From: a plasmid
Length of the DNA stretch: 3,731 nt
Assembly (NCBI RefSeq): GCF_988243305.1
Contig: NZ_OZ547141.1
Strand: one strand, 5' to 3'
Shown here piece after piece: positions 2,609 through 3,731 of the stretch. Numbering within the stretch: the stretch's first letter is position 1; each line of letters begins with the position of its first letter. Below the pieces are notes generated by a model that worked only from the letters and a program-made list of their open reading frames with translations, did no database searches and was not told the DNA's origin. A program made the position numbers and the translations under genes.

Positions 2609-2932
2609 ATGACAAAACGAAGTGGAAGTAATACGCGCAGGCGGGCTATCAGTCGCCCTGTTCGTCTGACGGCAGAAGAAGACCAGGAAATCAGAAAAAG
2701 GGCTGCTGAATGCGGCAAGACCGTTTCCGGTTTTTTACGGGCGGCAGCTCTCGGTAAGAAAGTTAACTCACTGACTGATGATCGGGTACTGAAAGAAGTT
2801 ATGAGACTGGGGGCGTTACAGAAAAAACTCTTTATCGACGGCAAGCGTGTCGGGGACAGGGAGTATGCGGAGGTGCTGATCGCTATTACGGAGTATCACC
2901 GTGCCCTGTTATCCAGGCTTATGGCAGATTAG
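2609..2932 (+). CDS. mobC: MobC/MbeC-like relaxosome accessory protein with N-terminal ribbon-helix-helix DNA-binding fold (107 aa); family assignment is from recollection, not a search
   Basis: ORF-track protein 2585..2932; preferred start is the second ATG at 2609, which has a GGAG 9 nt upstream (2596-2599). After a basic N-terminal tail (TKRSGSNTRRRAISRP), the segment VRLTAEEDQEIRKRAAECGKTVSGFLRAAAL has the strand-helix-helix pattern of RHH proteins. Context is a ColE1-family replicon next to rom. Confidence 0.6.
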   Translation: MTKRSGSNTRRRAISRPVRLTAEEDQEIRKRAAECGKTVSGFLRAAALGKKVNSLTDDRVLKEVMRLGALQKKLFIDGKRVGDREYAEVLIAITEYHRALLSRLMAD

Positions 2933-3008
2933 CTTCCAGGGGAGAAAACTGTCGAAAACAGACGGTATGAACACTGTAAGCTCCCAAAGTGATCACCACT
3001 CGCTTTCA

Positions 3009-3022
3009 TGCATAGCTATGCA
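3009..3022. promoter_or_regulatory. Perfect 14-bp palindrome TGCATAGCTATGCA; ArgR-box-like element of the cer accessory region
   Basis: Palindrome read directly; resembles the ArgR box half-sites TGAAT/ATTCA with one mismatch each; centred about 108 bp upstream of the XerC arm. Confidence 0.45.
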
Positions 3023-3096
3023 GCGAGCTGAAAACGATCCTGACGCATTTCCCCGGTTTTCTTAGGGTAAAACATCTCTTTTTGCAGTGTCTGTGT

Positions 3097-3121
3097 CAGA
3101 ATCGCGCTCAGCGCGATTCTG
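3097..3121. repeat. Perfect hairpin: 11-bp arms CAGAATCGCGC / GCGCGATTCTG with 3-nt loop, abutting the XerC arm
   Basis: Read directly from the sequence; no flanking T-tract on either strand, so not a canonical intrinsic terminator. Confidence 0.85.
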
Positions 3122-3122
3122 T

Positions 3123-3152
3123 GGTGCGTACAATTAAGGGATTATGGTAAAT
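3123..3152. other. XerC/XerD core recombination site: XerC arm GGTGCGTACAA 3123-3133, central region TTAAGGGA 3134-3141, XerD arm TTATGGTAAAT 3142-3152
   Basis: Matches the ColE1 cer core GGTGCGTACAA-TTAAGGGA-TTATGGTAAAT from memory, with the 8-bp central region typical of cer-type rather than dif-type sites. Confidence 0.8.
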
Positions 3153-3168
3153 ACAATTGGTTAAATTA

Positions 3169-3206
3169 GGGGTCTGACGCTCAGTGGAACGAAAACTCAC
3201 GTTAAG
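3169..3206. repeat. Tn3 38-bp terminal inverted repeat (bla-proximal end, IR-R)
   Basis: GGGGTCTGACGCTCAGTGGAACGAAAACTCACGTTAAG matches the Tn3 terminal repeat as recalled; followed by the standard Tn3 sequence leading into the bla stop codon. The flanking 5 bp outside the repeat is AATTA (3164-3168), an AT-rich target. Confidence 0.9.

Positions 3207-3315: not shown

Positions 3316-3731
<416 letters not shown>

Follow-up and report, generated by a model that had tools for sequence, protein, structure and literature searches.

A perfect palindrome beside the XerC arm of a plasmid cer-like site: a probable derived allele of a conserved inverted repeat

Introduction

Sites of the cer type resolve plasmid dimers in vivo via XerCD, ArgR and PepA. 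The ColE1 site also gives rise to a small RNA, Rcd, which is induced in dimers, binds tryptophanase and raises indole. Rcd is made from Pcer, a promoter inside cer, and Pcer mutants retain recombination (PMC4393325). The RNA has a size of ~70 nt (PMC5357621), a 15-bp spacer separates the two Pcer hexamers and Rcd is predicted to form a single stem-loop (PMC5935869). According to the citation of Sharpe et al. (1999) in PMC5935869, ColE1-type Rcd also has a conserved 15-nt sequence. Transcription of rcd runs in the RNAII direction, entering from the ArgR side, and cer as a whole points the same way as RNAII and oriV (PMC2831885). In pMB1-type plasmids a downstream promoter has been described as embedded in the cer core; this known promoter, EcoRI PR, uses TTAAGG of the central region as its -35 (PMC7315355).

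The DNA considered here, hereafter the window, is a complete small circular plasmid of 3,731 bp, with bla spanning its two ends. It contains a 25-nt palindrome under which the RefSeq annotation places no feature. The initial annotation had singled this palindrome out as a hairpin abutting the XerC arm of a cer-like site, and had offered two thoughts on its role: that it is part of a transcript equivalent to Rcd, or that it is a protein-binding site. We compared the locus with ColE1 cer and with other members of the cer family.

Results

The only genes in the window are bla, tnpR, rop and a nikA-like gene. RNAI of a ColE1-type origin was located on the minus strand (Table 1), which places RNAII on the plus strand. 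The cer segment tested (241 bp, 2930-3170) is 100% identical in a 3731-bp Klebsiella oxytoca plasmid, NZ_CP138772.1. Its 30-bp XerC/XerD core (3123-3152) is base-for-base the same as that of ColE1 cer. In sites of this type, accessory sequence extends for about 180 bp on the XerC side, and an ArgR box is located about 100 bp away from the core. At 3009-3022 the window has a 14-bp palindrome that aligns with the ARG-box region of ColE1 and that we take to be a putative ARG box by homology and from the consensus; some 106 bp separate it from the core, as in ColE1. Since the site is on the plus strand and RNAI on the minus strand, cer shares the orientation of RNAII, as in ColE1; the T-run of the ColE1 site, however, is missing from the window. 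Judged from these alignments, the hairpin sits in a genuine cer-type site. As a separate observation, the ARG-box equivalent is a perfect palindrome in the group of sites typified by plasmid NTP16, whereas it is asymmetric in ColE1.

Table 1. Coordinates of the features discussed in the text.
Feature	Position	Strand	Basis
RNAI	1474-1374	-	Rfam scan, 94.6 bits; ColE1-type origin
Whole cer-like multimer resolution site (accessory sequences and core)	2934-3152 (about)	+	Similarity in 2193 plasmid records; ColE1 alignment
Pcer-equivalent position, ATGCAT-15-TGAAAA	3008-3034	+	Alignment with ColE1 TTGCAT-15-TAAAAT
ARG-box-like perfect palindrome, TGCATAGCTATGCA	3009-3022	+	Aligns with ColE1 ArgR-box/Pcer -35 region
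Putative rcd-equivalent stretch, about 80 nt	3041-3122	+	Homology to ColE1 rcd; between ArgR box and XerC arm
Perfect palindrome, CAGAATCGCGCT-C-AGCGCGATTCTG, 25 nt	3097-3121	+	Inverted-repeat search
Derived substitutions relative to family consensus: 3107 T>C, 3116 T>A, 3119 T>C, 3120 A>T	3107-3120	+	Alignments
Palindrome central base, C/G polymorphic	3109	+	Comparison of otherwise identical plasmids
XerC arm, GGTGCGTACAA	3123-3133	+	Identity to ColE1 cer
Central region, TTAAGGGA, 8 bp	3134-3141	+	Identity to ColE1 cer
XerD arm, TTATGGTAAAT	3142-3152	+	Identity to ColE1 cer
Tn3-family remnant	terminal repeat 3169-3206; bla 1-445 and 3316-3731; tnpR 628-1185; res-like region ~1190-1320

The arms of the palindrome (3097-3108 and 3110-3121) are 12 nt each and 100% complementary, with 1 nt between them. 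In hairpin form this gives an 11-bp stem with six G-C pairs and a 3-nt TCA loop, and a single base, T3122, separates it from the XerC arm, so the initial description of a perfect 11-bp-stem hairpin ending 1 nt short of that arm was accurate. It is the longest perfect inverted repeat in the window, and 12-nt arms were reached in none of 300 first-order Markov simulations of the window (maximum 11); the palindrome is non-random. The predicted RNA fold is of similar energy on both strands (-17.9 kcal/mol, z -3.6, on the plus strand; -18.3 kcal/mol, z -4.9, on the minus strand), and the predicted DNA fold reaches -13.6 kcal/mol (z -7.3).

Neither strand has a U-tract after the stem (plus-strand tail UGGUGCGU, minus-strand tail ACACAGAC), and a scan of both strands around the hairpin returned no terminator-like site, in agreement with the earlier opinion that this is not a canonical intrinsic terminator. 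The hairpin does resemble such terminators in its GC-rich stem, its short loop and its place at the end of a short transcription unit, but the U-tract is missing in the window and the relatives have four U only. A terminator reading for the relatives was rejected, as their hairpin with TTTT fails a simple terminator scan in every case. No convincing promoter had been seen by eye, and likewise no candidate emerged from a sigma-70 scan of both strands of the window's cer with 14-19 bp spacers; ColE1 Pcer itself was picked up only with a relaxed spacer. The terminator scan also found no terminator-like site between the nikA-like gene and the hairpin, which makes plus-strand read-through from upstream plausible. 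The idea that the palindrome serves as the -35 or operator of a rightward promoter was rejected, the known core-embedded promoter EcoRI PR using TTAAGG downstream of the hairpin (PMC7315355).

For comparison with Rcd, both ends of the ColE1 transcript were reconstructed here. The Pcer candidate TTGCAT-15-TAAAAT (ColE1 3795-3821) agrees with the published 15-bp spacer, and RNA starting at 3827 is predicted to fold into one long stem-loop (-37 kcal/mol, z -4.2), in agreement with the published single stem-loop and 70-nt size; 70 nt from 3827 reaches about 3896, the foot of the stem. A second ColE1 candidate, TGAACG-15-TACAAT inside the XerC arm, was rejected, given that Rcd is encoded within cer and that Pcer mutants keep recombination (PMC4393325). 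In the alignment, the 5' arm of the window palindrome (AATCGCGC) is matched by ColE1 GATCGCGC, which forms the 3' strand of the Rcd stem, and the 3' arm by ColE1 CGCGTTTTAG; both arms fall where the ColE1 rcd region ends. With RNAI on the minus strand, the palindrome thus shares its strand with rcd and occupies the 3' end of the rcd-equivalent stretch.

In promoter and predicted fold the window departs from rcd. The -10 at the Pcer-equivalent position, TGAAAA, is without A at position 2 and T at position 6, the two most conserved positions of a -10 element. It is TGAAAG in many NTP16-type relatives and is degenerate across that group. The predicted fold of 3041-3122 consists of a 5-bp closing stem, in which CTGACGCA (3040-3047) pairs over a long range with TGTGTCAG (3092-3099), and a separate 3' hairpin (-25.3 kcal/mol, z -2.2), not a single stem-loop. 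Where ColE1 Rcd pairs GATCGCGC with its own 5' end to form a long stem-loop, the equivalent segment of the window has a local partner, a new 3' arm. The centre also differs strongly, with AAAACATCTCTTTTTGCAG in the window against GGTTTGTTGCC in ColE1-type rcd, which we take to contain the conserved 15-nt Rcd motif of Sharpe et al. An Rfam 15 scan of the window and of ColE1 cer found RNAI alone; Rfam contains no Rcd model. The earlier proposal of an Rcd-equivalent transcript thus stands on homology, strand and position in the ColE1 cer alignment, but is not borne out by the degenerate -10 or by the fold, which lacks the long stem-loop of the ColE1 type. On this evidence the site falls short of an rcd gene.

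The closest layout is that of NTP16-type cer-like sites (e.g., NTP16, NC_002090), in which the accessory sequence is 84-92% identical to the window. They share the long-range complement CTGACGCA...TGCGTCAG followed by a 3' hairpin next to XerC. Their hairpin segment, CAGAATCGCGTTCAGCGCGTTTTAGC, forms 8 of 12 Watson-Crick pairs and is followed by a T-run, whereas the window forms 12 of 12 and has no T-run. In many of these relatives the central region or the XerC arm is unlike that of the window.

Relatives of the 241-bp region were present in 2193 plasmid records. In all, 42 loci were retrieved, representing about 24 distinct cer-like sites (ColE1, NTP16, Col156 and Klebsiella IncF types, and sites from a genome scan). 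The scan of genome contigs contributed 13 further cer sites, along with two chromosomal dif sites matched by chance. These contig hits (L027-L038 and L040) are mostly on tiny, often very low-coverage contigs of assemblies labelled Streptococcus, Streptomyces, Hymenobacter, Bacillus, Rhizobium and others; the presence of such enterobacterial sites in assemblies of unrelated taxa is most likely small-plasmid contamination.

In each of the ~24 distinct sites compared, an imperfect inverted repeat occupies this same position against the XerC arm, most commonly in the form CAGAATCGCG-TTCAG-CGCGTTTTAGC followed by GGTGCG. The initial annotation had named a lack of conservation in related cer sites as a finding that would speak against it; an imperfect version is instead present in every cer-like class examined. 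In an alignment of 20 sequences, the inner eight pairs of the window hairpin were formed in 80% of cells, compared with 26-48% when the partner was slid by one to three columns. Every cer class is predicted to form a local hairpin against the XerC arm (-6 to -21 kcal/mol), among which the -17.9 kcal/mol of the window is not the strongest.

The repeat is biased towards the plus strand. The plus-strand fold is the stabler one in 22 of 24 cer sites, with a mean energy of -12.3 kcal/mol against -8.8 kcal/mol on the minus strand (27 sequences, including the two chance dif matches and the deletion variant L021). Paired cells contain 31 G-U combinations, valid on the plus strand only, against seven A-C combinations, valid on the minus strand only, and the T-run 3' of the stem in relatives occurs on the plus strand only. 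T-tracts maintained because they bend DNA could produce this bias as a side effect. Covariation is sparse: two to four pairs change on both sides, and the observed score was reached in 44 of 500 shuffles. RNAalifold on 20 cer sites, whose classes differ by small indels, gave a weak consensus (-1.96 kcal/mol) and did not recover the hairpin. The family evidence, as the alignments present it, is therefore one of persistent complementarity, not of strong covariation. The palindrome is a derived, perfected form of a conserved XerC-proximal inverted repeat and not a new element.

Two further features of the family concern the flanks of the hairpin. In many relatives, the hairpin is directly preceded by GCG(T/C)C, which can pair with the bases that open the XerC arm (GGTGC), and the predicted plus-strand hairpin thereby runs into that arm; in the window (3093-3097 versus 3123-3127) this pairing is weakened (GTGTC). 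The Klebsiella IncF plasmid L021 (NZ_CP077808.1), compared with L018 (NZ_MN823997.1), is missing the entire rcd-equivalent stretch, so that the ARG-box side is fused straight to the XerC arm, with the core kept. This was apparently a deletion between two direct repeats (CGTTCTGGCGG).

Four substitutions separate the window palindrome from the family consensus. All four turn a mismatch or wobble into a Watson-Crick pair, raising the number of such pairs from 8 to 12, and jointly they overwrite the ancestral TTTT run. Only 8 of the 75 possible single substitutions add a pair, giving a naive chance of about 1e-4 for four out of four. The change can be followed in the series TTTTAG (consensus), TTTCAG (L002), TTTCTG (L023) and ATTCTG (window). 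Living intermediates include TTTCAG in L002, L024 and L026, TTTCTG in L023, and the loop-proximal C in L040 and ColE1, and they occur in relatives otherwise similar in sequence to the window. The perfect form was carried by 17 plasmids among 5426 complete E. coli genomes. Over the 121-nt region 3035-3155 the central base is the sole difference among these plasmids: C in 11 and G in five to six. The G centre was also seen on a low-coverage contig from a Bacillus assembly. The variation at 3109 was noted from the window, L043 (NZ_CP100507.1) and L036. By these comparisons, the perfect form is a recent derived state of one lineage. The initial annotation had mentioned neither this origin nor the T-run after the stem in relatives.

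Homogenisation of the arms and inversion of the spacer are described as hallmarks of template switching within a hairpin (PMC8604942, PMC7202029, PMC8794818). At quasi-palindrome hotspots in E. coli (PMC7202029) and in hairpin-making switches (PMC8794818; PMC8604942), one repeat is perfected from the opposite arm and the spacer inverts. The window likewise combines arm perfecting with a C/G flip of the centre, which fits quasi-palindrome template switching. The changes do not form the one-arm cluster of a single event; they fall on both arms (3107 versus 3116-3120), and this, with the stepwise intermediates in L002, L023 and L040, makes several events likelier than one. The mutation pattern therefore suggests that the four substitutions were most likely caused by quasi-palindrome template switching, possibly aided by selection for a stronger stem, which is inseparable from mutational bias.

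Discussion

We give about an even chance to the reading that the palindrome is a plus-strand RNA 3' stem-loop homologous to the 3' hairpin of rcd. Any plus-strand transcript crossing cer would fold it into an 11-bp hairpin of about -18 kcal/mol right before the core. Such a transcript might start at the Pcer-equivalent position or come from read-through of RNAII or of the nikA-like gene upstream. As a 3' stem-loop, the hairpin would form or protect the end of this RNA and pause the polymerase, without being a canonical terminator. Under this reading, the short imperfect stem and TTTT of the relatives would have been converted, in the lineage of the window, by extension of the stem into the T-run until it was perfect. 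Both transcription of the cer region in this plasmid and an effect of the hairpin on that RNA are what we infer from homology, position and strand bias.

The main rival, possible but less likely, is a functionless relic. In this subfamily Pcer would be dead and the stretch would only fill the distance from the ArgR/PepA region to XerC, as spacer or bendable accessory DNA, with the palindrome a product of repeated template switching that is tolerated because Xer recombination needs length and phasing, not sequence. The -10 that is degenerate across the NTP16-type group, the weak covariation and the lack of indels between ARG box and core, which preserves phasing, all agree with this, as does the retention of the core in Klebsiella plasmid L021 after loss of the whole rcd stretch. 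That every change perfects the stem and that the centre flips between C and G are the very signature of template switching (PMC8604942, PMC7202029). On the other hand, the divergent cer classes have all kept the inverted repeat even as its flanks change, and the plus-strand G-U bias is unexpected for neutral DNA. In Klebsiella-type sites (L018), moreover, TTCTG complementary to CAGAA was gained independently, which hints at selection for pairing. These sites have, again independently, the same three-segment arrangement as the window (TTTCTG...CAGAA...TTCTG). A further idea is that of a live hairpin element, undergoing template switching in vivo, as the C/G centre flip suggests, and acting as a two-state RNA switch beside the XerC arm. 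The invariant CAGAAU would then be contested by two segments, the new 3' arm AUUCUG and AUCCUG, the ancestral 5' partner; the switch would replace the long-range fold of the Rcd type, and could couple transcription through cer to XerC access or to the fate of the transcript. We consider this idea decidedly unlikely.

The hairpin could also work as a transcription barrier or insulator, with Rcd unneeded: it would stop or pause rightward transcription (from nikA/mob, RNAII read-through or Pcer) ahead of the XerCD core, and so would keep the recombinases from displacement and block read-through into downstream cargo. We regard this as unlikely. A hairpin lacking a U-tract is a poor terminator in E. 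coli, and the window version has no U-run, while the versions of the relatives fail the simple terminator scan. It nevertheless always directly precedes the XerC arm, its T-run is confined to the plus strand, and the interval from nikA to the core contains no other terminator-like site. It has also been argued that transcription entering cer matters for its control (PMC2831885), and the core of pMB1-type plasmids contains an embedded downstream promoter (PMC7315355). Highly improbable, in our judgement, is a site acting at the DNA level, either as an operator to which a dimeric protein binds or by extruding a cruciform under supercoiling that modulates XerC binding or a nearby promoter. Its perfect two-fold symmetry, its equal stability on both strands, the strong predicted DNA hairpin and its position against the XerC arm would suit such a role. 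Perfect symmetry is, however, limited to a single young lineage (17 of 5426 complete E. coli genomes), and in relatives that share its flanks and its downstream gene the repeat is imperfect and asymmetric. The genes of the window (bla, tnpR, rop and nikA-like) include no candidate for a binding protein, and the known cer-core promoter takes its -35 from downstream of the hairpin (PMC7315355). Nothing, then, points to the protein-binding site that had been suggested at the outset.

The element is an unannotated allele of a well-known site, and no new system is needed to account for it. A repeat that abuts the XerC arm, is kept in all cer classes and is biased towards the plus strand is compatible with a role in RNA, where rcd-type transcripts end, even for subfamilies in which Pcer looks dead. 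If the stem matters, it would offer a handle on how transcription is kept off the Xer core. The lineage of the window also provides a natural series of 8, 9, 10 and then 12 paired positions with a C/G flip of the centre, a quasi-palindrome perfected in wild plasmids; the stepwise perfecting and the flip are minor curiosities.

The surroundings of the site differ among its relatives. The Tn3-family remnant of the window has a single exact 38-bp terminal repeat, 16 bp past the XerD arm, and meets the ColE1 origin region at about 1320; the window contains no tnpA and no second terminal repeat. The closest Tn3-free relatives have the ori, rop, nikA and cer with the perfect palindrome in common with the window. 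In L042, a 4052-bp Shigella plasmid (NZ_CP055118.1), a retron (671-2018) takes the place of the Tn3 remnant, and the retron of the Tn3-free relatives consists of a reverse transcriptase and a Se72-family effector. In these relatives PGAP also calls an 88-aa hypothetical ORF (L023 295-561; L043 143-161) with a TTG start four bases past the XerD arm, which in the window (3157 onward) is truncated by the Tn3 end after four codons. Finally, a 20-nt imperfect inverted repeat (2516-2557; 85% complementary, 2-nt gap) is found shortly before the start of the nikA-like gene and may be an oriT repeat or an operator.
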